Assembly: GCA_022799495.1 (NCBI GenBank)
Contig: JAAWON010000001.1
Span: 39,684-103,683, forward strand
Direction: 5' to 3'
Length of the DNA: 64,000 nt
Source: Erysipelotrichaceae bacterium
Lineage (GTDB): Bacteria; Bacillota_I; Bacilli_A; Erysipelotrichales; Erysipelotrichaceae
In this document: positions 29,036 through 44,915 of the stretch, piece by piece
How positions within the stretch are numbered: the first letter of the stretch is position 1
Layout: every line of letters starts with the position of its first letter
Translations under genes and position numbers: made by a program
Notes under the pieces: generated by a model
What the model saw: only the letters and a program-made list of their open reading frames with translations
What the model was told of the DNA's origin: nothing
Databases searched by the model: none

Positions 29036-30049
29036 TTAAAGCAGCACAATCCCATGTTCGCCGCATACCTTATGCATCTCCTCACTCCATGCGCTGACCT
29101 GTACTTCACCTATGTGTGCCTTGTTTAATAGCACCATACAAATACGTGACTGGCCGATTCCTCCTCCCATCGTCAACGGCAACTCCCCATTCAGCAGCAT
29201 CCGATGAAACGGCAGTTCCTCGCGTGCTAAACAACCTGCCTTACTTAACTGCTCATGAAGGCTTTGTGCATCCACCCGAATCCCCATACTGGATAATTCC
29301 ACCACACAATCCAACAGCGGATAATAAATCAAAATATCACCGTTCAACTTCCAATCATCATAATCCGGTGCTCGCCCGTCATGCGGTTGACCACTGTTTA
29401 AACGATCCCCAATCTGCATTAAAAACACACTTTTATGCTTTTTACAAATCGCATATTCTCGTTGTTTGGGGGTTAAATCAGGATATGCATCCTCCAATTC
29501 CTGCGTTGTGATAAAGGTGATATCCTCATAGATAAAAGGCTCCAAGTTCTCAAATACCTTGATGATCTCTGACTGTGTTTCACACAATGCCTTCATAATC
29601 AAAATTACGGTATGGCGAAGCAGCGCTTCTCCGCGTTCCTGTTTAGAAATAATCTTTTCCCAATCCCACTGATCCACATAGATCGAATGCAGATGGTCCA
29701 AGTCCTCATCTCGACGCACCGCATTCATATCCGTATAAATCCCCTTATTCACATTGAGATGATAGCGTTTCAGCGCCATCCGTTTCCATTTTGCCAAGGA
29801 ATGAACAATCTCCATATCCTCGCCGCTCTCTTTTATGTCAAAGCGCACAGGCCGCTCTACCCCACTTAGATTATCATTCAAACCACTGTCCCCTGCCACA
29901 AACAGCGGCGCTGAAACACGCATCAGATTCAAATGGTTGGCCAAACGCTTTTCAAATAAATCCTTTACATATTTAATAGCGATCTCTGTTGTCACTAGAT
30001 CCAATTTATTCTCATAATGTTTCGGTATGCGCAAATCTTGAACTGCCAT
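29036..30049 (-). CDS. asnA: aspartate--ammonia ligase
   Basis: VHSLAKWKR, HSIYVDQWDWE, GRAPDYDDW, GGGIGQSR. Confidence 0.97.
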   Translation of the reverse strand: MAVQDLRIPKHYENKLDLVTTEIAIKYVKDLFEKRLANHLNLMRVSAPLFVAGDSGLNDNLSGVERPVRFDIKESGEDMEIVHSLAKWKRMALKRYHLNVNKGIYTDMNAVRRDEDLDHLHSIYVDQWDWEKIISKQERGEALLRHTVILIMKALCETQSEIIKVFENLEPFIYEDITFITTQELEDAYPDLTPKQREYAICKKHKSVFLMQIGDRLNSGQPHDGRAPDYDDWKLNGDILIYYPLLDCVVELSSMGIRVDAQSLHEQLSKAGCLAREELPFHRMLLNGELPLTMGGGIGQSRICMVLLNKAHIGEVQVSAWSEEMHKVCGEHGIVLL

Positions 30050-30176
30050 CCTCATTCCTCCCTTTTCATTGGCACTATTATACTCCATATTCCTCAGAAA
30101 ATATACGCTTTTCAAACATAAAAAAGGAAGTCCGATCATTCAAAGACTTCCCGTTTGCCAATCACTATTTACGAAA

Positions 30177-31760
30177 TTATGCCTCATGGCTTAAAATATA
30201 GCGTTTGGCAAGATAAACAATGATTTTCATCGTTCCATTTACCAATAGAATCAATAGCGAGATAAAAGCAGTTGCCTCAATCAGCGATTGGGAATCAAAC
30301 TGCGGAATCATAAGCGCAATCGGCATATTCTTGAAGTTTGCCAAAAAGGATACCGCTGATATCGTTACCATCGCATTGACAAATAGATAGGAGAACATCT
30401 CCACAATCGTTGCTTTGGTACAAGGAATATAGACATCCAGCAACATACGCAACTTCCCAATGCCCATGGTCAAGGAAATATCCTCTAGTTTCTCATTGAA
30501 ATTGGACAATGAGTTATAAGCCAATAAATATGGAGAAGCAAAGAAATGAGTAACATTCACCATCACCAAGATAATAATCGTACCGTAGATAGCACTGCCT
30601 TTTAGCAGTAACACATAACTTAAGCCCAATACGATACCGGGAATGGCCAAAGACACCATCGCAATTAAATGAAGCGCAAGTGCGGTGAAATTGCGCTGGC
30701 TGCGTGCGGTCACATAAGCACAGAAGTAAGTCAAAATCACACCGATGAGTGCAGTGGCCATCGCAATCGCCAATGAGTTCAACAAGTACGTACCGATGCC
30801 CAAATCAAATGCCTTCTGCACATTCACCAAAGATAAGGAGAGATCAATCGGATAATGCGCAACCAGTGATAACAACGCAAATGCTAAAATCGGCAAGGCG
30901 ATCAAAATAATCACCAGCGTGCAGAAACCATACGCGATCAGATCACGCTTCTTGTTCTCCTTAATCAAATAGGCTTGGGTAATCGTTGAGTTTGATGTGC
31001 TGTTGCGATTGAACAGATCCAATAAAAAGGCAATCAAGGCCGGAATTAACAAGATGATGCCAATGATCGTTCCTTTTGAGAAATCAAGCAGACCGATTAC
31101 CTCCCGATACATATAGACCGGTAAGGTCATCATCTTTCCTCCTACCATCAAAGGCACACCATAATCAGTGAAAATCAAGGTGAATGTCGCAAAGATCGCA
31201 GAGATCAAAGGACGCTTCATATTAGGCAGGGTAATTGTCATGAACTGTTTCATTTTGGATAAACCCAATACCTCTGCCGCCTCATAAGTTGTATAATCCT
31301 CATAATGAAATACATCCGTCAACATCAAGAAAGCGGGTGGAAAAGAATACAGAATGGATCCGATGATAATACCAACATAGCCGTATAGATTGATATTGAT
31401 CCCCAATAAATTCGTCAATATTCCATTATCACCGAACAAAATCACCAAGCCTTGTCCATGAGAAATACTGGGAATCAGCATTGGCAAAGTAAACAGCATC
31501 GCAAATACGGCGCGATAACGCATATTAGAGCGATTGACACACCATGCCAGAGCGAATGCAATACTGACCGAAATCAACGTTGCCACACTTGTCGTAAATA
31601 AAGAATTGCGTATCATCGGCATAAACTGCGGTGATTGAAATACGGCCGGGATGTCAGATGGATCAATATGACTCATTAAAGTGATGAGCGGCAGCACGAC
31701 GGACACCAATAAAAATACAATGATGAACACTCGTAGGCTGTTATATCCCTTATTTTTCAT
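30177..31760 (-). CDS. ABC transporter fused double permease (FbpB / aminoethylphosphonate-type)
   Basis: Two EAA loops (YEAAEVLG; LEDISLTMG), about 12 TM. Confidence 0.88.
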   Translation of the reverse strand: MKNKGYNSLRVFIIVFLLVSVVLPLITLMSHIDPSDIPAVFQSPQFMPMIRNSLFTTSVATLISVSIAFALAWCVNRSNMRYRAVFAMLFTLPMLIPSISHGQGLVILFGDNGILTNLLGININLYGYVGIIIGSILYSFPPAFLMLTDVFHYEDYTTYEAAEVLGLSKMKQFMTITLPNMKRPLISAIFATFTLIFTDYGVPLMVGGKMMTLPVYMYREVIGLLDFSKGTIIGIILLIPALIAFLLDLFNRNSTSNSTITQAYLIKENKKRDLIAYGFCTLVIILIALPILAFALLSLVAHYPIDLSLSLVNVQKAFDLGIGTYLLNSLAIAMATALIGVILTYFCAYVTARSQRNFTALALHLIAMVSLAIPGIVLGLSYVLLLKGSAIYGTIIILVMVNVTHFFASPYLLAYNSLSNFNEKLEDISLTMGIGKLRMLLDVYIPCTKATIVEMFSYLFVNAMVTISAVSFLANFKNMPIALMIPQFDSQSLIEATAFISLLILLVNGTMKIIVYLAKRYILSHEA

Positions 31761-32538
31761 AAAGCGTTCTTCCTGTGCATTTTAACAGCGATTGCAGTTT
31801 TTGATCCAGATGCGCAATGACAAAATCTTTAATATAATCATTGGCCGGATGATCATAGATCTGTTTTGGCGTATCCAACTGCTCAATGTTTCCTTCACTC
31901 ATTACCATAATGCGATCACTTAAATAAAACGCTTCTTCCTGTTCGTGAGTGATAAAGATCATCGTAGAATTGAACTGTTTTTGAATCTCTTTCAATTCCT
32001 TTTTCATCACTTCCCGCATACTGACATCCAATGCCGAAATCGGCTCATCCAACAAAATGATTTTAGGATTGAGCGCCAATGTACGCGCAATCGCGACACG
32101 TTGTTGCTGACCGCCGGATAATTGCGAAGGGCGCTTATGAAGTTGCTCCTGCATCCCGATTTGTTCCAGTGTCTTAACCGCAATTGATCGACTCTCTGCT
32201 TTTTTATCGGCACGCAGTCTCAATGCATATTCCACATTCTCCAAAACTGTCATATTGGGGAACAACGCATAATTTTGGAAGATGATGCCCATCTCGCGCT
32301 CATGTGGTTTTAAGGCGGAGATATCCTTTCCATCCATCAAAATCTGACCGCTGTTTTGTTGATCCAAACCGATCAATATGCGAAGCAGTGTCGTCTTACC
32401 ACAACCACTCGGCCCCAAAACACTTAGAAATTCTCCCTCTTTCACTTGGAAGGATACAGATTTCAACACCTCTTTTTGATCAAAGCGTTTTGTAAGATCC
32501 TTCACTTCCAGTTTAATTGTATCTTTTAGTATTTCCAT
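31750..32538 (-). CDS. ABC transporter ATP-binding protein
   Basis: GPSGCGKT, LSGGQQQR, LLDEP. Confidence 0.93.
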   Translation of the reverse strand: MEILKDTIKLEVKDLTKRFDQKEVLKSVSFQVKEGEFLSVLGPSGCGKTTLLRILIGLDQQNSGQILMDGKDISALKPHEREMGIIFQNYALFPNMTVLENVEYALRLRADKKAESRSIAVKTLEQIGMQEQLHKRPSQLSGGQQQRVAIARTLALNPKIILLDEPISALDVSMREVMKKELKEIQKQFNSTMIFITHEQEEAFYLSDRIMVMSEGNIEQLDTPKQIYDHPANDYIKDFVIAHLDQKLQSLLKCTGRTLYEK

Positions 32539-33506
32539 AATCCCAACAGCCTTTCTTTTTCACTCATATCTTCAATTCCCTGCATATCCGCATATTGAAT
32601 ATTCTGCGGATAATTGGCAATGGTATTTTCCTGATTCACCAAAATTTGTTCCGGTGAGAAATGTTTCTTATCATATACGAGGAAATCATTGACGAGAAAG
32701 GAGAACACCCGTCTGATATCCTCATCCGTTTCACGACCTTTGATCAATCCGGTACCGGTCAATGAGTACGGAGATCCCTCTGCGGGATAAATGATTTTAA
32801 AATCATTGCCGTTATTGATCTCATTCACCGCTTGGAATGTCAATCCCAAACCGATGGCAACCTCTCCTTGGATCAACAATTTGATCGGTCCCGATCCGCT
32901 TTCACTGAACAACTTGATATTTCGCTCCAAATCATCAATATAAGCAAGCGCCGCTTCATCCCCCATCGTATTGATCAAACTCTTGTAGAAGAAATAACCG
33001 GTGCCGCTTGATTTAGGATCCGGCATAGCAATCAATCCTTTGTACATCGGATCCAATAAATCCTCATAAGTTTGCGGTTGCGGTAAGCCATGCTTTTCCA
33101 AAACACTTGGATTGATAATGAACGCACCAGCCTGTCGCTCCCATGTCACATATAAATTATCATGATCCGCAGGCGCTAACCCCTCCATAAATTCTTGATG
33201 ACTGTATCCAGAAATATCACCCAATGCATCCTCAATGAAATGCATATAGGAAGTTTCCAAGCCAACTATCATATCCGCATCACTGTTCTCCCCCTCCATG
33301 TGGATTTTAGCGGCAGCCTTGGCGGTAGGTATATACATCACACGAATGGCCAAATCGGGAAAGCGCTCATCCAACTGCTTTTGCAGTTCTTCCCCGCGAA
33401 ATTGTTCCAAGCAGGAATAGATGATAATCGTTTGTTCCTTATTACGTGTCACCATAAATAATAGGATGGCAGTGATCACGGTCAATAAAACAAAAACCTT
33501 TTTCAT
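32526..33506 (-). CDS. ABC substrate-binding protein (AfuA/AEP-type)
   Basis: P.TYEDLLDP.YKG.IAMPDP.SSGTGY, SGSGP. Confidence 0.88.
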   Translation of the reverse strand: MKKVFVLLTVITAILLFMVTRNKEQTIIIYSCLEQFRGEELQKQLDERFPDLAIRVMYIPTAKAAAKIHMEGENSDADMIVGLETSYMHFIEDALGDISGYSHQEFMEGLAPADHDNLYVTWERQAGAFIINPSVLEKHGLPQPQTYEDLLDPMYKGLIAMPDPKSSGTGYFFYKSLINTMGDEAALAYIDDLERNIKLFSESGSGPIKLLIQGEVAIGLGLTFQAVNEINNGNDFKIIYPAEGSPYSLTGTGLIKGRETDEDIRRVFSFLVNDFLVYDKKHFSPEQILVNQENTIANYPQNIQYADMQGIEDMSEKERLLGLWKY

Positions 33507-34987: not shown

Positions 34988-35782
34988 ATGAATCCAAAAC
35001 AACTGCTGGAACAAGCAGACACCATCCATCACACAGAACTACATCTAAGTGCGACAAATCATCAAGCACTGCCAAGGTTATCAAATGGTGCCTTAGTGGA
35101 ACTGAAACAAGGTTCCCTGCTTTATCATTGTCTTGATGAGCGTGAACCGCTAAACTCACCACAGTGGTATCTATTTTCAGCACGTTCCAGTGCTGAATTA
35201 CATCCCCTTGATTCTGCCATTCTCTCCTTATGGCAGTGGCAAGGGCTCTGTCTCACGATTTCTGAGACGCCTTGGATTTGTCTTACCCTCTCTGCATTAG
35301 AACAGGAATTGATCCATGCGTTGCGCCAATGCATGATAGATTCAAATGTGGATCCAATCTGGTTGGAAACACTGAGCGCAACCTTATTGATGTCTTTGCG
35401 CCGGCGTATTCCTTCCCTTTCCTTTCATCCTGCCAAGCGCACTTCATTTCTCATGCAACAAATCACGGATTATATGCATACACATTATCAGGAAACAATT
35501 TCATTGGATCAACTGGCACAACAATTTCACCGTGATAAATATGCCTTAGCCCATCATTTCAAACATCATAGCGGCACCACTATCACCGCTGTTTTAACCC
35601 AAATTCGCCTATCACACGCAAAAACACAACTATGCCAAACTCATCATTCCATTCATGAAATTGCTCAGCATTGTGGTTTTTCCAGCACCTCTTACTTCAT
35701 CCAGTGCTTTCGTAAACAATTTCATCTGACACCTTTACAATACCGCAAGCAATATCAGCGAAACAAGCGCGTTTTGCGATAA
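34988..35782 (+). CDS. AraC family transcriptional regulator
   Basis: C-terminal ISLDQLA...IA..CGFSS.SYF...FRK....TP.QYR. Confidence 0.9.
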   Translation: MNPKQLLEQADTIHHTELHLSATNHQALPRLSNGALVELKQGSLLYHCLDEREPLNSPQWYLFSARSSAELHPLDSAILSLWQWQGLCLTISETPWICLTLSALEQELIHALRQCMIDSNVDPIWLETLSATLLMSLRRRIPSLSFHPAKRTSFLMQQITDYMHTHYQETISLDQLAQQFHRDKYALAHHFKHHSGTTITAVLTQIRLSHAKTQLCQTHHSIHEIAQHCGFSSTSYFIQCFRKQFHLTPLQYRKQYQRNKRVLR

Positions 35783-35870
35783 ACCAGCCTATCAATACAA
35801 AAAAACAACAGCCGCTGTCTAAAGAAATTCTTAGGCCATTGACTGTTGTTTTTATTTAACGTATGAATGA

Positions 35871-36188
35871 TTATGCTTTTACTTTCACACAGGTGCCATC
35901 CGGTCCCGGAGTGGAGTTCAAATACTCGGCAATTTTCGCTTTTTGATCTGCCTTGCAGGGACGACAAGTTCCCACAACACTAACCTCACCGGTTACCAAA
36001 GCCTCAGCCAAACCTGAACAACCTGCATAGCCACAGCTACCGCAATTATAGTTTGGCAGCATCGCTGTAACAGTTTCGATTCGCTCATCTACTTCCACCT
36101 GCAAGTATTTGTCCGCAACACCTAGGCCAAGTCCTAAGACAGCACCCAGCACCAGCATCATTGCGACCGCAACGATTATCGCTTCCAT
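35871..36188 (-). CDS. rnfB: Rnf complex subunit B, truncated (TM plus FeS domain only)
   Basis: LP.YNCGSCGYAGC...A.AL, CRPC; ends at 105 aa with no ferredoxin repeats. Confidence 0.85.
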   Translation of the reverse strand: MEAIIVAVAMMLVLGAVLGLGLGVADKYLQVEVDERIETVTAMLPNYNCGSCGYAGCSGLAEALVTGEVSVVGTCRPCKADQKAKIAEYLNSTPGPDGTCVKVKA

Positions 36189-36203
36189 GCCAACCTTCCT
36201 TTC

Positions 36204-36365
36204 CTACTGGTCATGTGATGGATGCAGCGCACAGGAACTGTCATGGCATCCTTCACACTCCGCCTTAATATTCTCGCAGCCTTCCGGCAGCGGTGTTTTA
36301 TGATTCAGATAATATAACAAAGCGTAAATCCCAGCCAATCCGGCAAAGAATAATACGGCTGCCAT
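36204..36365 (-). CDS. 53-aa Cys-rich single-TM protein inside the rnf operon
   Basis: MAAVLFFAGLAGIYALLYYLNHKTPLPEGCENIKAECEGCHDSSCALHPSHDQ; start overlaps the rnfA stop (TAATG); stop abuts the rnfB RBS. Confidence 0.75.
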   Translation of the reverse strand: MAAVLFFAGLAGIYALLYYLNHKTPLPEGCENIKAECEGCHDSSCALHPSHDQ

Positions 36366-36946
36366 TATACCAAACCTGCCAATCCGCTAAAAGCAAGCGC
36401 CATAATTCCGGCAACGATCAATGCGATCGGATTCCCCTGAAAAGCTGCCGGGACATTGCTTGCGTCCAAACGCTCACGGATCGTGGAGAAAATATATAGC
36501 ACCAAGGTAAAGCCGATTGGAATCGCCAGTGCATAGGTCATCATTTCCGCAAAATTATAACCTTCGGAAATGTTATTCAAAGTGACATTTAGCACAACAC
36601 AGTTGGTTGTGATCAAGGGCAGATAAACACCCAATGCCTTATACAAAGAGGGACTCATCTTCTTGATTACCATCTCGACCAACTGTACCAAAGATGCGAT
36701 AACCAAGATGAATGTAATCAAGTCCATGTATTGTAAGTTTAAAGGCTCCAGTACCGCATAATACAAACCATATGTGACCAAAGAAGCCGCAACGATAACG
36801 AAGGTTACCGCCGCCCCCATGCCCAATGCCGAACTGCTTTTCTTAGATACGCCCATAAATGGACAGATACCTAAGAACTGATTTAAGATGACATTGTTAA
36901 TCAAGGTAAACGTGATGAACATCACAAACAAATTACCGAAATCCAT
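36365..36946 (-). CDS. rnfA: Rnf complex subunit A
   Basis: FLGICPFMGVSKK, LPLITTNC. Confidence 0.95.
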   Translation of the reverse strand: MDFGNLFVMFITFTLINNVILNQFLGICPFMGVSKKSSSALGMGAAVTFVIVAASLVTYGLYYAVLEPLNLQYMDLITFILVIASLVQLVEMVIKKMSPSLYKALGVYLPLITTNCVVLNVTLNNISEGYNFAEMMTYALAIPIGFTLVLYIFSTIRERLDASNVPAAFQGNPIALIVAGIMALAFSGLAGLV

Positions 36947-36949
36947 AAA

Positions 36950-37642
36950 TTACTTCGCCTCCTTTGCCAGCTGCGCCGCCTGTTGCTTCGCTTCTGCTTC
37001 CCGTTTGGCTTCTTTCGCGTTTTGATGATTTTTATACGCTGCCAAACCACCGGCCAAGAACGCAAAAGTAATGAATGCACCAAACGGCTGTGAGAACATG
37101 GAGATGATATAATCTTCAGGGATCAAACGAAATGAGAAGATCACCTGTTCCATATCAAACGGATTCTCAAATGATAAGATACCGGTAGCCAAAATCTGGC
37201 GCAGTGCCGACATCACAATGATGGATACCGTATAACCGAGTCCCATTCCCAAACCATCAAGTGCGGAATCAAAAATTCCATTTTTGGAGGCAAACGCTTC
37301 TGCTCGCCCCAAGATGATGCAGTTTACGACAATCAAAGGAATGAATACACCTAGCGCACTATCTAATGCCGGGGCATATGCCTTTATTAACATTTGAATA
37401 ATCTTAACTAAAGTCGCAATCACAACGATATAGACAGGAATACGAATCTCACTTGGCGTTACTTTACGCAGGCAGGAGATGATCACGTTGCTCATCACCA
37501 ATACCAGGATAACCGCAACACCCATACCAATCGCATTGTTTAATGTCGTTGTAATAGCCAATGTGGAACATAATCCAAGATACAAACCGAAGACCGGATT
37601 TTCACGGATGAATCCGGCAGTAAAATTTTCTTTACGATTCAT
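36950..37642 (-). CDS. rnfE: Rnf complex subunit E
   Basis: ENPVF...LGLC.TLA, PLIVVNCIILGRAEAFA. Confidence 0.95.
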   Translation of the reverse strand: MNRKENFTAGFIRENPVFGLYLGLCSTLAITTTLNNAIGMGVAVILVLVMSNVIISCLRKVTPSEIRIPVYIVVIATLVKIIQMLIKAYAPALDSALGVFIPLIVVNCIILGRAEAFASKNGIFDSALDGLGMGLGYTVSIIVMSALRQILATGILSFENPFDMEQVIFSFRLIPEDYIISMFSQPFGAFITFAFLAGGLAAYKNHQNAKEAKREAEAKQQAAQLAKEAK

Positions 37643-37653
37643 GATTCACCCTC

Positions 37654-38163
37654 CTACTTTAAGTTTTCCAGCAGATACTTGCCTGCTTCATGGATACCGT
37701 CTACCACCGGTTTGGAGGACACTGTGGCACCGGCAATGATATCCAGTTCATCCTCGGCATTTTTACCAACCAGCGCATCATGGAAGGAAGCATCCGCAAC
37801 CTTAGTTCCGATTCCCTGCGTATCCCCATTGGAAATCACCACATAATCAATAATCTTCGCCTGATCATCCAAGGCTACCATGAAACTGGTGCCTTCCTTA
37901 TAACCGCTTACTTGTAACTTAAAGACAGTTCCTTTTCCTGCCACCTGAAAGATCTTTTCAATCGTTTCAGAATCCTTGACGGCGATTTCCTTAAAATCAT
38001 CATCACTGGCATCCGGAAAAATCAATGCCAAATTCTCTTTTTCTGCGGCAAGTGCATTCGCTGCGACAATCGGCGCAGTTAAACTGTTGGCAAATGCCAA
38101 AGCGCCGCCGGCAATCGCTGCGACCAGAGCTAAGAACAAGGTCAAGTGCAATACTTTTTTCAT
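37654..38163 (-). CDS. rnfG: Rnf complex subunit G (FMN-binding)
   Basis: N-term TM, T.GIG, DIIAGATVSS. Confidence 0.9.
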   Translation of the reverse strand: MKKVLHLTLFLALVAAIAGGALAFANSLTAPIVAANALAAEKENLALIFPDASDDDFKEIAVKDSETIEKIFQVAGKGTVFKLQVSGYKEGTSFMVALDDQAKIIDYVVISNGDTQGIGTKVADASFHDALVGKNAEDELDIIAGATVSSKPVVDGIHEAGKYLLENLK

Positions 38164-38176
38164 ACCTGCTTACCTC

Positions 38177-39697
38177 CTAATATCCCAGTGCCTTCTTGAC
38201 TTCCAGAAGGGCACGCATCGACGATTTCACAGAGAAGGTCGCTCCGGAAACCACATCATTCTTTTGTACTTCTTGTAGGGTTGAGATATCCTTTCCCTCA
38301 AATTGACTTAAGTACTTCTTATTTAAGATCTTATCGCCAATATAAGGAGTATCCTTGATTACCGTCGGGTTGAGTGAAACAATCGTCTTGCCATCGGCTG
38401 CGATCGTGATCTCAAATACATTAGGATCAAACGGATGATCATAGTTCGGCATATTCGGGCCTTCTTTTGCCGCATAACCTTCCGCCGTTACCGTATACGT
38501 CGTTGAACCGTCTTCATTTTGGAGTGAGCCATCCAAAGTCGCATTCAAAGCAGCCGTATAACTATCATCCATTGGAATCATCACAGTTTTCGGTTTTTCC
38601 GGTACTTTAGGCTCAGCCGGTGTAATCGCCGCATTTGCCAAAGCCATTGAACCGATTCCAAGTACACTCAATACACCAAGCGTCATCCATGCTTTTTTAC
38701 GCAGTGCCAACTGTTTGCCTGCAAATGCCTGTTCAATCGCCGGTGTCAACATATTCATAATCAGAATGGAATACATGCATCCTTCCGGCGCATTCGCAAG
38801 CACACGAATCAAAACGGTTATAATACCTGCGCCTAACGCAAAGACGCATTTGCCCATCTTGCTGGTTGGCGAAGTCACCGGATCGCTTAACATGAATACC
38901 GCCCCAAATACAACACCACCGGTACATAAATGATACAGCGGATACCAATAGAAATTGGTTATACTCATTCCGGCCATCAAGCCCAAAATACTGGTCAAAA
39001 CCAAAATGGAACCCAAATAGATAACAGGAACACGCCAATCAATCACCTTACGGATGATGAGTACCACACCAAGAACTAACAACAACAATGTGCAAGTCTC
39101 ACCCAATCCACCGGGATACCAACCGGTAAATAACGTCCATAAATCATACTTACCTAACAGTGCTGAAATCATGGAATCATTGATCGTCAGCCAGTTATAC
39201 TCCCCTGCGATTAACGCAGTCGGTGTTGCGGCAGTTGCCACATCCGCCACTTTTGCGCCGGCAAAGCTGGCAAAGATGATCGCAAATCCAACTGCGGCAG
39301 GATTAAAGATATTCTGACCGAAACCGCCGAATAAAATCCGACCAACAAAAATCGCAAAGAACGTTGCGATTGCCAATGCATACGGCTGCGTATCAACCGG
39401 ACACATCAACGTCAAGATAATTGCCGTAATCCAACCAAATGAGGAGGAAATATACGGTATCATCGCTTCCTTTTTAAAGAGTGCCCACAACGCTTCACAT
39501 ACAAATGTAACAACCAGCGCTGTCGCCATCAAAATAAGCGCCTGCATGACATATGCCGTTCCATATTCCGAATTGCTCGCATAATAGAACAAGGAGAAAG
39601 CATAAACGATCAATAATGCGATCGTCAGTTCCATCATCATGCGCTTGGTACTTAACTTCTGGCGTAAGTTGGGGCTTGCATTAAATACGAATTTCAT
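38177..39697 (-). CDS. rnfD: Rnf complex subunit D with C-terminal extra FMN-binding domain
   Basis: FGGFGQNIFNPA, DVATAATP, GET, FMLSDPVTSP; extension ending DVVSGATFS. Confidence 0.92.
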   Translation of the reverse strand: MKFVFNASPNLRQKLSTKRMMMELTIALLIVYAFSLFYYASNSEYGTAYVMQALILMATALVVTFVCEALWALFKKEAMIPYISSSFGWITAIILTLMCPVDTQPYALAIATFFAIFVGRILFGGFGQNIFNPAAVGFAIIFASFAGAKVADVATAATPTALIAGEYNWLTINDSMISALLGKYDLWTLFTGWYPGGLGETCTLLLLVLGVVLIIRKVIDWRVPVIYLGSILVLTSILGLMAGMSITNFYWYPLYHLCTGGVVFGAVFMLSDPVTSPTSKMGKCVFALGAGIITVLIRVLANAPEGCMYSILIMNMLTPAIEQAFAGKQLALRKKAWMTLGVLSVLGIGSMALANAAITPAEPKVPEKPKTVMIPMDDSYTAALNATLDGSLQNEDGSTTYTVTAEGYAAKEGPNMPNYDHPFDPNVFEITIAADGKTIVSLNPTVIKDTPYIGDKILNKKYLSQFEGKDISTLQEVQKNDVVSGATFSVKSSMRALLEVKKALGY

Positions 39698-39709: not shown

Positions 39710-41005
39710 TTACTTCTTCGCCATAGCCATATGGCGTTTTGCTTTCCTTACATTTTCTGTTACTTCCAATTTGGAAGGACATACATAGGTGCACAGACCA
39801 CATTCAATACAATCAGATGCACATAGTTTTTCCATCATTGCTTTATCCTTTGTCTTTTCAGCCTGCGCAATGCGCACTGGCTGTAAGCCCACCGGACATA
39901 CATCACTGCACATACCGCAGCGCTGACAAGCAACCGGCTTCACCGTATGGTTTACAAGCACCGTGATCGCATTCATCTGACGCTCCACCACGAATTGATC
40001 ATTGACAATGGTCTTGCCCATCATTGGACCACCGGCAATCAGTTTCACTTCATCACTTGTATAACCGCCACATGCCGCAATCAATTCACTGGCCGGCACA
40101 CCAATTGGACAGTGGACATTGACCGGGTTCTTTACCCCATCGCCACTGAGTGTCAAAATGGAAGTAATGATGCCTTGACCTCTTAACAATGCCTTCGCAA
40201 AAGCATAACAGGTGTTCAGGTTATTGACAATCGCGCCTACCTCAATCGGCAGTTTATCATATTCTTTTTTCATGATATGGCGAACCAAGGCACGCTCCCA
40301 GCCAATCGGATAAACATCCGGCACCGCCTCAACGCGGACACCTCCGATATTGGCTACAGCTTTGGATACCAACTCCAATGTATCCGTATGCGTTTTCTTG
40401 ATCGCAATAACGACTTCTTCCGCCTGTGCCATCTTGCGCATTGCTAAAATACCGACCAAAATATCATCAAAACGGGTAGCCATCATCACATGATCGGCTG
40501 TGATATAAGGTTCACATTCGATCGCATCAATGATGAGTTTTTTTACCTCTTTGGCCTTTTCATACTTCACATAGGTAGGAAAACCGGCACCGCCTTTTCC
40601 AACAATCCCCGCTTCTTTCATAAAAGCGATCAATTCTTCTCTTGAAGCCTGTTGGTAATCAAGCGGCTGAAAAGCAGGCGCCTGTTCCATTTTGCCATCG
40701 CTTTCGATCACAATATGGTCTAGCGGCTTCAAACTCATGTGCATCCGCTTCTGCACTCCTTTTACAGTGCCGGAAACACTGGCATAGATCGGCATATACA
40801 TACGATCGTTGCATTCCGCAAGTTTCGTACCGACTTTGACCTGATCGCCTTCCTTTACCAAAACATCAAATTTCAATGAATGGTTCGCATATAAAGGAAT
40901 GAATACTTGAGAACCTGCCGCAACCTCCAGCAGTTCCTTGTCATCACTCAGTTCCTTATAGCCCGGCACATGTAGATGCATTGATCCAGTAAACAACGAC
41001 ATCAC
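39710..41005 (-). CDS. rnfC: Rnf complex subunit C
   Basis: GGAGFPT, ECEPYITAD, GGPMMG, two CxxCxxCxxxCP motifs. Confidence 0.95.
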   Translation of the reverse strand: MMSLFTGSMHLHVPGYKELSDDKELLEVAAGSQVFIPLYANHSLKFDVLVKEGDQVKVGTKLAECNDRMYMPIYASVSGTVKGVQKRMHMSLKPLDHIVIESDGKMEQAPAFQPLDYQQASREELIAFMKEAGIVGKGGAGFPTYVKYEKAKEVKKLIIDAIECEPYITADHVMMATRFDDILVGILAMRKMAQAEEVVIAIKKTHTDTLELVSKAVANIGGVRVEAVPDVYPIGWERALVRHIMKKEYDKLPIEVGAIVNNLNTCYAFAKALLRGQGIITSILTLSGDGVKNPVNVHCPIGVPASELIAACGGYTSDEVKLIAGGPMMGKTIVNDQFVVERQMNAITVLVNHTVKPVACQRCGMCSDVCPVGLQPVRIAQAEKTKDKAMMEKLCASDCIECGLCTYVCPSKLEVTENVRKAKRHMAMAKK

Positions 41006-41302: not shown

Positions 41303-42406
41303 ATGAAAAAAATAGTGTTGATCTTCAGTCTTTGTCTCATGCTTTGCGGTTGTCATGAAAAGCCCGCTTTAAGCAAACACAGCGGTCAAATTTTAGATGG
41401 TGGTTTTGACACCTTTATTCAGTTGATTGCCTATACCCAAAGCGAGGATGAATATGAAGACTATCTTGCCTTAACTAAGGAACGCTTTCAATATTATAAT
41501 GCCCTATTTGATCGCTATCATAATTATGAAGGAATCAACAATCTCAAAACGATCAACGACAATGCAGGGAAACAAGCGGTCGCAGTGGATCAGGAACTGA
41601 TTGCGCTGTTAAAGCAAACCAAACAATATACACAGCTGGCAAATGGCCGTTATGATGTGAGTTTCGGTGCTGTTTTAGAGGTATGGCATCGCTATCGTGA
41701 AGAAGCGACATCAGGTGGTAAAATCGCCGTACCGACGATGGCAGAGCTAGAGGATGCATCGCTCCATACCGGTTGGGATTTGATTGAAATTGATGAACAG
41801 GCCGGTACTGTTTTTATCAAAGACCCATTCGCTTCCATTGATTTGGGCAGTGCAGCCAAAGGATATGCGGCAGAAAAATGCGCACTCGCCTTACAGGAAG
41901 CAGGGCTGCGCCATGCCATCTTGAATGCCGGTGGGAATGTGCGCATCATTGGCGATAAACCGGAAAGCGATAATCACAGTTGGAGTGTTGGCATACAACT
42001 TCCCTCCAATCAGGAAAGCGCTTCTTTGGCTACGGTTTATATGGATAAGGACAGTTCTTTTGTGACCAGCGGTGATTATCAGCGTGCCTATGAATATGAA
42101 GGAATCATGTATCATCATATCATTGATCCCAGCACATTGATGCCCGCCCGACACATGCGCTCATTGACAATTATCTGTGAAGATTCCGGTTTGGCGGATA
42201 TTTTATCCACCACCTTATTTACAATGAGTTACGAGGAAGGCAATGCCTTATTGACACAATTAAAAGAACAAGGGATTGCCGCAGAGGCAGTATGGGTCTT
42301 TGATGCGAATGAAACAGCGCCGGATATAGAATCGCTCTATACAAAAGGCAGTTATCTGATCGCCATCAGTGATGGCCTGCGCGATCATTTTGAACTGTCG
42401 AAATAA
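41303..42406 (+). CDS. apbE: FAD:protein FMN transferase lipoprotein
   Basis: Lipobox LCGC, IDLGSAAKGY, NAGGN, TSGDYQR, HHIIDP, ADILST. Confidence 0.93.
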   Translation: MKKIVLIFSLCLMLCGCHEKPALSKHSGQILDGGFDTFIQLIAYTQSEDEYEDYLALTKERFQYYNALFDRYHNYEGINNLKTINDNAGKQAVAVDQELIALLKQTKQYTQLANGRYDVSFGAVLEVWHRYREEATSGGKIAVPTMAELEDASLHTGWDLIEIDEQAGTVFIKDPFASIDLGSAAKGYAAEKCALALQEAGLRHAILNAGGNVRIIGDKPESDNHSWSVGIQLPSNQESASLATVYMDKDSSFVTSGDYQRAYEYEGIMYHHIIDPSTLMPARHMRSLTIICEDSGLADILSTTLFTMSYEEGNALLTQLKEQGIAAEAVWVFDANETAPDIESLYTKGSYLIAISDGLRDHFELSK

Positions 42407-42620: not shown

Positions 42621-42668
42621 ATACGCATCGCGAAAAAGAATGCGGATAAACGATAGGAGGTAACAGTG

Positions 42669-44915
42669 ATGCAACATGCATGGAATGGATTTCAAGGCAG
42701 ACTTTGGAAAGAGGAGGTCAATGTCAGAGACTTCATTCAAACCAATTACACCCCTTATGAGGGAGATGAACAGTTTTTAGCAGGTCCCACAGCGGCAACC
42801 ACCCATTTATGGGATGAATTACAGAAGCTGCAAAAAGAAGAGCGAGCAAAGGGTGGCGTATTGGATATGGAGACAGAAATAGTGTCCTCTTTGAACGCTT
42901 ATGGTCCCGGCTATATTAAAGAAGATGAGAAACAGTTAGAACAAGTTGTCGGTTTACAGACCGATCAGCCACTGAAACGCGCCTTTATGCCCTATGGTGG
43001 TATCAAAATGAGTGAGGAAGCATGTAGCACCTATGGCTATACCCCCAGTGAAAAACTCCATGAGATTTTCCACAATTATCATAAAACCCATAATGATGCG
43101 GTATTCGATTGTTATACGCCGCAAATGCGTATGGCGCGCAAAAACAAGATCGTCACCGGTTTGCCGGATACCTATGGACGTGGACGAATCGTCGGTGATT
43201 ATCGTCGTGTCGCGTTATATGGTATTGATTATTTGATTGCGGCAAAGGAAAAAGACAAAGAAAACTGCGGATGTGGTGTCATGAGTGATGATATCATTCG
43301 CCAACGTGAGGAATTGGCAGAACAAATCAAGGCACTCAAAGGAATGAAGGAAATGGCAGCGGCTTATGGCTTTGATATTTCCAAACCGGCACAAAATGCC
43401 AAAGAAGCGGTACAATGGGTATATTTCGGCTATTTGGCAGCGATTAAAACGCAAAATGGCGCCGCAATGAGCGTTGGACGCATCGCTACCTTCCTTGATA
43501 TCTATATTGAACGAGACTTACGCAATGGAGTGTTGAGCGAAGAAGCCGCACAAGAATTGATTGACCATATGACAATGAAATTCAGAATGGTAAAATTTGC
43601 GCGTATCCCCTCTTATAACCAGTTATTCTCCGGCGATCCAGTATGGGCTACCTTAGATCTTGCCGGACTTGGCATGGATGGGCGGCATATGGTAACGAAA
43701 AGCGATTATCGCTTCTTACGCACTTTAGAGAATATGGGACCGGCACCGGAACCCAATCTCACCGTATTGTATTCTTCCCATCTGCCGGAAAGTTTCAAGC
43801 GTTATGCGGCCCGTATCTCCATCCAAACCTCCTCTGTCCAATATGAAAATGACGATGTAATGCGCCCGGTATGGGGCGATGATTATGCGGTGTGCTGTTG
43901 TGTATCGGCAACGCAAACCGGCAAGGAAATGCAGTTCTTCGGTGCCCGTGCCAATCTGGCAAAATGCCTTCTATATGCGATCAATGGCGGTATGGATGAG
44001 AAAAGCAAAACACAAGTCGGCCCTGAATATGCCCCGATCACAGATGAATACTTAAACTTCGATACCGTGATGCATAAATACGATATCATGATGGAATGGC
44101 TCGCTGATCTTTATGTCAACATTTTAAATCTGATTCAGTATATGCATGATAAATACTACTATGAGGCTGCTCAAATGGCGTTGATTGATACTGATGTACG
44201 CAGAACCTTTGCGACCGGTATCGCTGGGTTTTCTCATGTGGTAGATTCTTTATCCGCAATTAAGTATGCGAAGGTCAAAACGATTCGCGATGAAAACGGT
44301 TTGGTCGTAGACTTTGAAACAACCGGTGACTTCCCCCGTTATGGCAATGATGATGATCGGGCAGATGATATCGCTGTATGGTTATTGAAAACATTCATCG
44401 AAAAGATCAAAAAGCGTCATACTTACCGCAATTCCGAGCCAACCACTTCTATTTTAACCATTACCAGCAACGTGGTATATGGCAAAGCCACCGGTGCTCT
44501 GCCGGATGGCCGCAAAGCCGGAGCACCACTAGCGCCGGGCGCCAATCCCGCCTATGGTGCGGAACAAAGCGGTTTACTCGCATCGCTCAACTCCGTCGCA
44601 AAACTGCCTTATGAATATGCGTTAGACGGTATCTCCAACACGCAGACGATCAATCCCGAAGCACTGGGTCATAATGAAGCAGAGCGCATCGACAATCTAG
44701 TAGCGGCATTGGATGGTTACTTCGACCAAGGTGCCCATCATCTCAATGTCAACGTATTTGGCATTGAGAAGTTAAAAGATGCGATGGAACATCCGGAAAA
44801 AGAGGAATATGCGAATTTCACAATCCGTGTGTCCGGCTATGCGGTGAAATTTATTGATTTAACCCATGAACAACAATTGGATGTCATTGCACGTACTTGC
44901 CATAGTCATCTATAA
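42669..44915 (+). CDS. pflB: pyruvate formate-lyase
   Basis: [20 protein letters not shown] active site, TIRVSGYAV glycyl radical motif. Confidence 0.98.

Follow-up and report, generated by a model that had tools for sequence, protein, structure and literature searches.

X, a 53-residue mini-protein encoded between rnfA and rnfB in the window (the whole 64,000-nucleotide stretch of DNA that was analyzed), is probably, with a likelihood of roughly 60%, the functional stand-in of its lineage for RseC: a membrane-anchored helper with a predicted Fe-S cluster on C37, C40, and C45 that would build or maintain the Fe-S centers of Rnf. RseC, X, and a Cys-rich tail at the C-terminus of RnfE almost never occur together. 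The equivalence of X and RseC rests on this complementary distribution and on the behavior of the Cys motif, not on descent.

The X gene and its operon

The rnf genes lie on the minus strand in the order rnfC (431 aa, with an Fe-S domain, 39710..41005), rnfD (506 aa, with an extra C-terminal FMN_bind domain, 38177..39697), rnfG (169 aa, with an FMN-binding domain, 37654..38163), rnfE (230 aa, 36950..37642), rnfA (193 aa, 36365..36946), X (36204..36365), and rnfB (35871..36188). The gene of the flavin transferase ApbE, a known Rnf maturation factor according to the available part of PMC12174285, is divergent upstream (41303..42406, plus strand). RnfB is short (105 aa) and consists of a membrane anchor and one C-x2-C-x4-C-x17-C FeS domain (PF04060); profile searches found no ferredoxin domains in it. 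C28 and C116 of RnfA are invariant in 54 loci and probably ligate the intramembrane RnfA/E center; C25 and C108 of RnfE are also invariant. The C-terminal tail of the window's RnfE is free of Cys. The extra FMN-binding domain of RnfD has a flavinylation-type motif at residue 481; the RnfD proteins of relatives (19 loci) can be 500-760 aa long and their RnfG proteins as much as 1119 aa, which suggests multi-flavinylated extracellular extensions.

The minus-strand ORF of X encodes MAAVLFFAGLAGIYALLYYLNHKTPLPEGCENIKAECEGCHDSSCALHPSHDQ, and the plus strand of 36204-36365 holds several stops. Its ATG uses the final A of the rnfA stop codon (TAATG overlap), it takes up 161 nt of the 176-nt rnfA-rnfB gap, and its TAG stop is followed by a 15-nt purine-rich, ribosome-binding-site-like spacer (GAAAGGAAGG..., 36189..36203, minus strand) that leads to the rnfB ATG. 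The first-pass annotation had described this arrangement, together with one transmembrane helix followed by C-x6-C-x2-C-x4-C and several His, and all of these features are present. It had also called X unannotated, which is half right: X has no family name and its relatives are annotated “hypothetical protein” of Erysipelotrichaceae or Bacilli, but it is already a called gene in public collections. Profile searches placed X in no Pfam or NCBIfam family, and NCBIfam searches with 40 diverse members returned no recurring family.

The X ORF is a real, conserved gene. Homologs occur in 33 of 41 related genomes, always flanked by rnfA and a short rnfB; at one locus, from a 66%-complete genome, the rnfA/ORF junction is disrupted. 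Codon differences from four congeners are 74 synonymous and 28 non-synonymous. The start codon falls at -3 to +11 nt from the rnfA stop in 54/54 parsed loci (65 were tried, 11 of which were dropped by the parser's length or neighbor filters). Searched against 1.84 billion representatives, the X profile found 379 proteins (clusters at 50% identity) at E<=0.001; among the matches listed, 149 of 150 X relatives are stand-alone proteins of 49-95 aa.

RNA-library contigs from four runs of two studies lie over parts of the rnf operon, although contigs cannot show transcription or translation; one covers 36180-36406, across X, and is a hint at most. None lie on 35000-35632, and contigs of two runs from one study end at 35833-35834. 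A hairpin followed by a T-run after rnfB (35800..35853, minus strand) is a possible but weak terminator, read from the sequence without a shuffle control; it was not listed by the promoter/terminator scan, which was itself not usefully above shuffles. Farther out, a pyruvate-formate-lyase-like gene follows apbE (42666-44915, plus strand), and 29036-33506 holds genes for an AsnA-like protein and for an ABC transporter that includes a binding lipoprotein, all three labeled by inspection only.

AlphaFold2, run on a 54-row alignment, predicts a membrane helix at residues 2-23 of X (36297..36362, minus strand, pLDDT about 98) followed by coil, with a mean pLDDT of 83. In 137 of 150 representatives the segment that follows the helix has more K and R than the segment that precedes it, so that, by the positive-inside rule, the C-terminus with the Cys motif probably lies at the cytoplasmic face. 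Within the motif, C30-x6-C37-x2-C40-x4-C45 (36231..36278, minus strand), C37, C40, and C45 are near-invariant among the 150 representatives (148, 148, and 147); C30 is present in 113, and a four-Cys requirement was rejected on this count. In the N-x-x-T-x-x-P linker, N21, T24, and P27 are kept in 141, 130, and 150 of the 150. The His residues at 22, 41, 48, and 51 had earlier been drawn into the metal site; each is conserved in only 13-32 of 150 representatives, and they were rejected as ligands. What survives of that proposal is that X is a membrane protein, conserved and linked to Rnf, whose Cys motif is a plausible site for metal or Fe-S. The length of X ranges from 33 to 90 aa.

Distribution of X in the class

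The class sample comprises 301 genomes of the host's class, which are related and not independent. A first X profile matched 146 of 300 genomes and a broader one 154 of 301; one of the 154 matches (in G322, where rnfC lies at a contig edge) is an ordinary feoB neighbor, leaving 153 X genomes. The short-RnfB profile has matches in 167 of 300 genomes. X and RnfB occur together in 152, so that 152 of the 153 X genomes have an RnfB match, and X is found in only one of the 133 scored genomes without one. G224 (95% complete, 90 contigs) has X and no rnfA/E or rnfC match; a congener has rnf.

Fifteen RnfB genomes gave no X profile match. Seven carry a 33-45-aa ORF with a helix and Cys in the rnfA-rnfB gap, one has a partly masked gap, and one is 55% complete. 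The remaining six have a clostridial-type operon with a full-length RnfB and a Cys tail on RnfE, and G033 from the set of relatives adds a seventh, again combining full-length RnfB and a Cys-tailed RnfE in the absence of X. The co-occurrence with short RnfB that the first-pass annotation had proposed to examine by synteny is thus found within the class, with X in 0/7 full-length-RnfB genomes. The short gap ORFs of reduced-genome lineages (seven loci) have as few as three Cys in some cases and are likely missed by annotation.

In at least 32 genomes from six families X lies away from an rnf operon that is present elsewhere, as judged by comparing the coordinates of X and rnf, with contexts inspected in part. 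rnfA abuts rnfB in these genomes, as it does directly in many short-RnfB operons of the class. Detached X is often found in one of two neighborhoods (14 loci in all), before a dCMP-deaminase-like gene or between phosphoglucomutase-like and uracil-DNA-glycosylase-like genes; the labels were read from translations. X is inherited with Rnf even when it lies outside the operon. Occurrence independent of rnf, which had been named beforehand as a point against a role in Rnf, is therefore seen at the level of the operon (the at least 32 genomes) and, at the level of the genome, in a single case. Being tied to Rnf at the genome level yet detachable, X can act in trans, and its distribution is more readily explained by a helper of this kind than by a subunit that has to be co-translated.

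Further operon types were seen in the class. In a set of twelve genomes, some carry 2-4 rnf/nqr-type operons together with 1-3 X genes. Large ORFs lie immediately upstream of rnfC in one type of operon, the genes before rnfD were not recognized as rnfC in another, and at locus L140 rnfC follows rnfB. Two genomes encode an RnfB of 184-187 aa in which the FeS motif is apparently repeated, and in one of them (G102) another copy of X lies 777 nt past rnfB.

Four genomes of one genus have RnfE-family matches and no RnfB, and all four are without X. The two that were inspected have an Nqr-type operon (NqrD/E and an NqrF-like gene); apart from it they contain a divergent RnfE/A-like pair with an ApbE-like lipoprotein behind it, again with neither RnfB nor X. 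Since these Nqr-type genomes are without X, X does not serve every A/E-type membrane center as a helper, and what it acts on may be particular to Rnf, the RnfB cluster being one example.

RseC, X, and the RnfE cysteine tail

A search for RseC (PF04246) gave no full-length match in the 301 class genomes; 13 weak matches are confined to the helices (profile positions 45 and up), one of them 0.2 bit over the cut-off. In an overlapping sample of the same class, 0/220 genomes matched at E<=1e-5. The controls (E. coli, B. thetaiotaomicron, and T. maritima) were positive in both samples.

The E. coli RseC motif is CX5CX2CX5C; its first Cys can be dispensed with, and the other three are conserved. In vitro the domain acquires an Fe-S cluster that is sensitive to O2, and two-hybrid tests show an interaction of RseC with both RsxB and RsxD (available part of PMC11729352). 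In C. ljungdahlii, rseC is essential for autotrophy, and its deletion lowers rnf transcription during autotrophy (PMC9124969, in the part available). The same part of that article describes rseC as adjacent to rnf in some genomes and often unlinked in others, and it names seven acetogens with Rnf but no rseC, for which the reason is left open. The N-terminal part of RseC/MucC/RnfF (PF04246) resembles X in belonging to a small membrane protein with a cytoplasmic Cys motif, predicted to be so placed in X. In both, the last three Cys are conserved and the first is dispensable (in X, 148/148/147 versus 113 of 150), and both track Rnf, either adjacent to the operon or far from it. Unlike X, RseC has about 130-150 aa and a β-rich domain, with its motif before two helices; the topology of X is reversed, with one N-terminal helix and the motif after it, and the spacing is C-x2-C-x4-C in X and x2, x3, or x5 in the RseC proteins compared here. 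X itself has no match to PF04246 at E<=1, one of its 149 representatives matches at E 0.07, and HHalign detected no homology to RseC (probabilities of 6 with 10 RseC segments and 25 with 3).

A Cys-rich C-terminal tail on RnfE is present in all seven full-length-RnfB operons of the class; in X operons, the RnfE tail has 0 Cys in 52 of 54 cases and 1 Cys in 2 of 54. The tail motif is typically C-x3-C-x2-C-x3/5-C (first spacing mostly x3). Like X, the tail is built of a helix, a basic linker, and C-xn-C-x2-C-x3/5-C, and within the class it excludes X; unlike X, it is fused to RnfE and usually stands beside a full-length RnfB. HHalign aligned X to the tail with a probability of 95 (column-shuffled controls at most 1), a match that is not specific because X against the RnfB FeS motif also scores 83. 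An ESM Atlas search with the tail returned only sub-0.9 matches to 50-57-aa proteins, which is a lead and not evidence. The solved RnfE proteins of C. tetanomorphum and A. woodii (201 and 196 aa) have no tail, and A. woodii has rseC (PMC9124969, in part).

Outside the class, exclusion of RseC and the tail was predicted beforehand and assessed on the best 80 of 599 confirmed rnfE loci, which were drawn with a tail-bearing query and stem mostly from Lachnospiraceae/Oscillospiraceae, mostly from MAGs of unstated completeness. At least 3 Cys follow the last RnfE helix in 69 of them, 2 Cys in one, and none in 10 (the tail at L226 was re-read by eye and has 4 Cys). RseC scored over the cut-off in 9/10 tail-less genomes, 1/69 tail-bearing genomes, and 0/1 with two Cys; the tail-less genomes include four of Bacteroidota type, with Clostridia types among the rest. 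The exceptions are G416, which has no tail, no RseC, and no X, and G482, which has both tail and RseC. A Fisher test that counts the two-Cys case as tail-bearing and ignores the kinship of the genomes gives p about 4e-10, a value on which, owing to that kinship, no weight is placed. Given this kinship, the tail-bearing query, and the predominance of Lachnospiraceae/Oscillospiraceae, the exclusion pattern may reflect just a few evolutionary events.

The literature searched, a scope that left most subscription journals outside, held no account of the X ORF or of the RnfE Cys tail, and the available parts of PMC8238504, PMC10434189, and PMC12682751 contain nothing further on either. The three-way exclusion of RseC, X, and the RnfE tail is new, and the tail itself is apparently undescribed.

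Competing readings and proposed role of X

X is unlikely, on the evidence that follows, to be a seventh, stoichiometric subunit with a cluster that passes electrons to the short RnfB or docks a soluble donor on it. The position of X, mostly between rnfA and rnfB with start and stop codons that overlap or nearly do so, would suit such a subunit, as would its company with short RnfB in the class. A crude motif scan of the window's genome (87% complete) also found no small ferredoxin or flavodoxin; the same scan picked up pyruvate:ferredoxin-oxidoreductase-like and hydrogenase-like ORFs. Azotobacter RnfH is a precedent for an extra small Rnf subunit, but it is cytoplasmic and has no cofactor, unlike X with its membrane helix and predicted cluster. 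The earlier idea that X replaces the ferredoxin domains missing from RnfB is weakened by Thermotoga maritima, in which a 10.56-kDa, one-cluster RnfB works in a plain six-gene rnfCDGEAB operon (PMC7414866; also PMC9588780; both in part) and Rnf accepts electrons from C. pasteurianum ferredoxin (PMC7414866, in the same part). The T. maritima RnfB is short like that of the window, but its genome has RseC. A Lacrimispora MAG locus (L221) likewise combines a 92-aa RnfB and an RnfE tail with no ORF between rnfA and rnfB. A short RnfB thus occurs without an in-operon X in both, and a ferredoxin-replacement mechanism is unnecessary. Moreover, 64 of 68 tallied tail-bearing loci have a full-length RnfB, so the presence of the motif does not depend on a lack of ferredoxin domains. 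Detachment of X in at least 32 genomes, and extra rnf operons within one genome that have no in-operon X, further argue against a fixed subunit.

X may be a recruited remote relative of the FeoB-associated family (PF12669), to judge from its sequence. The two share one helix, a basic linker, and C-x2-C-xn-C; X differs by its N-x-x-T-x-x-P linker and by its neighbors, which are rnfA/rnfB or housekeeping genes and not feoB. Among the 149 X representatives, 46 match PF12669 at E<=0.1, all under the cut-off (best 26.3 versus 27 bits), as do, weakly, all seven of the shortest gap ORFs. A genuine feoB-adjacent protein scored only 22.9 bits, and an ESM Atlas search with X also points toward this family. 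These matches would be expected if X were an iron mini-protein of the FeoB-associated type, serving general iron supply or sensing and tracking Rnf as a major iron sink, a reading that is nonetheless quite unlikely. The host genome has, on the same contig, a separate feoA-feoB pair followed by a 65-aa Cys-rich membrane protein distinct from X (contig C58, 10345-12870, outside the window), no inspected X lies beside feoB except two weak matches that are ordinary feoB neighbors, and X is missing from all but one of the 133 genomes without an RnfB match.

Still less probable is a redox or oxygen-sensing switch, in which a labile cluster or disulfides in X would regulate Rnf activity or expression. 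The O2 sensitivity of the RseC cluster and the drop in rnf transcription upon rseC deletion in autotrophic C. ljungdahlii speak for it. However, X spans only 33-90 aa and is devoid of a DNA-binding part, and the fusion of a Cys tail to RnfE would be easier to reconcile with an effect on the complex than with one on transcription. Finally, a chance reading frame in an intergenic gap is refuted by conservation, as X is kept in 153/301 genomes and 379 clusters at 50% identity, with a synonymous bias and coupled starts.

A parallel to an RseC-like helper is offered by NqrM (DUF539, PF04400), which has a single helix followed by Cys residues. Like X, it is a small membrane-bound protein with apbE nearby, and it acts as an Fe-S maturation factor, the role proposed for X; unlike X, it serves Nqr and not Rnf, and the Nqr-type genomes of the class are without X. 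Identity of X with NqrM was rejected: neither X nor its 149 representatives match PF04400, and the operon, which apbE adjoins, is Rnf (RnfC with an Fe-S domain, and RnfB) and not nqrABCDEF. A genome search with PF04400 gave 0/101 genomes, run without a positive control. Nqr, a homolog of Rnf, seems to need NqrM for its intramembrane center (available parts of PMC12174285 and PMC6209661).

As the RseC stand-in of its lineage, X would be inserted in the membrane with its C-terminus inside and would bind an Fe-S cluster through C37, C40, and C45, with C30 or an external ligand as the fourth. It would then act on RnfA, RnfE, or RnfB and load or maintain the Fe-S centers of Rnf. The cytoplasmic placement of the motif, the cluster binding, the contact with RnfA/E/B, and the cluster delivery or upkeep are each proposed here as steps of a model that would parallel the proposal for NqrM and be compatible with the RseC data. 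In Lachnospiraceae/Oscillospiraceae-type operons, the Cys tail of RnfE would represent a third version of this helper, one fused to a subunit. More tentatively, every Rnf complex could need a membrane-anchored three-Cys Fe-S helper, of which at least three interchangeable forms would exist: RseC, the RnfE tail, and free X.

If this is true, X is a general Rnf maturation module in its smallest version (33-53 aa). The lack of rseC in some Rnf-containing acetogens would then be explained, and RseC would have to be seen as a factor that delivers clusters. The role of RseC is still debated between regulator, electron carrier, and assembly factor, and the proposed three-way substitution makes this question directly testable. 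Rnf is a main energy-conserving pump in gut anaerobes and in acetogens of industrial use, and X may be relevant to its heterologous expression. For an unnamed family of at least 379 clusters from Erysipelotrichaceae-like and related lineages, the proposed role in Rnf maturation provides a hypothesis of function.
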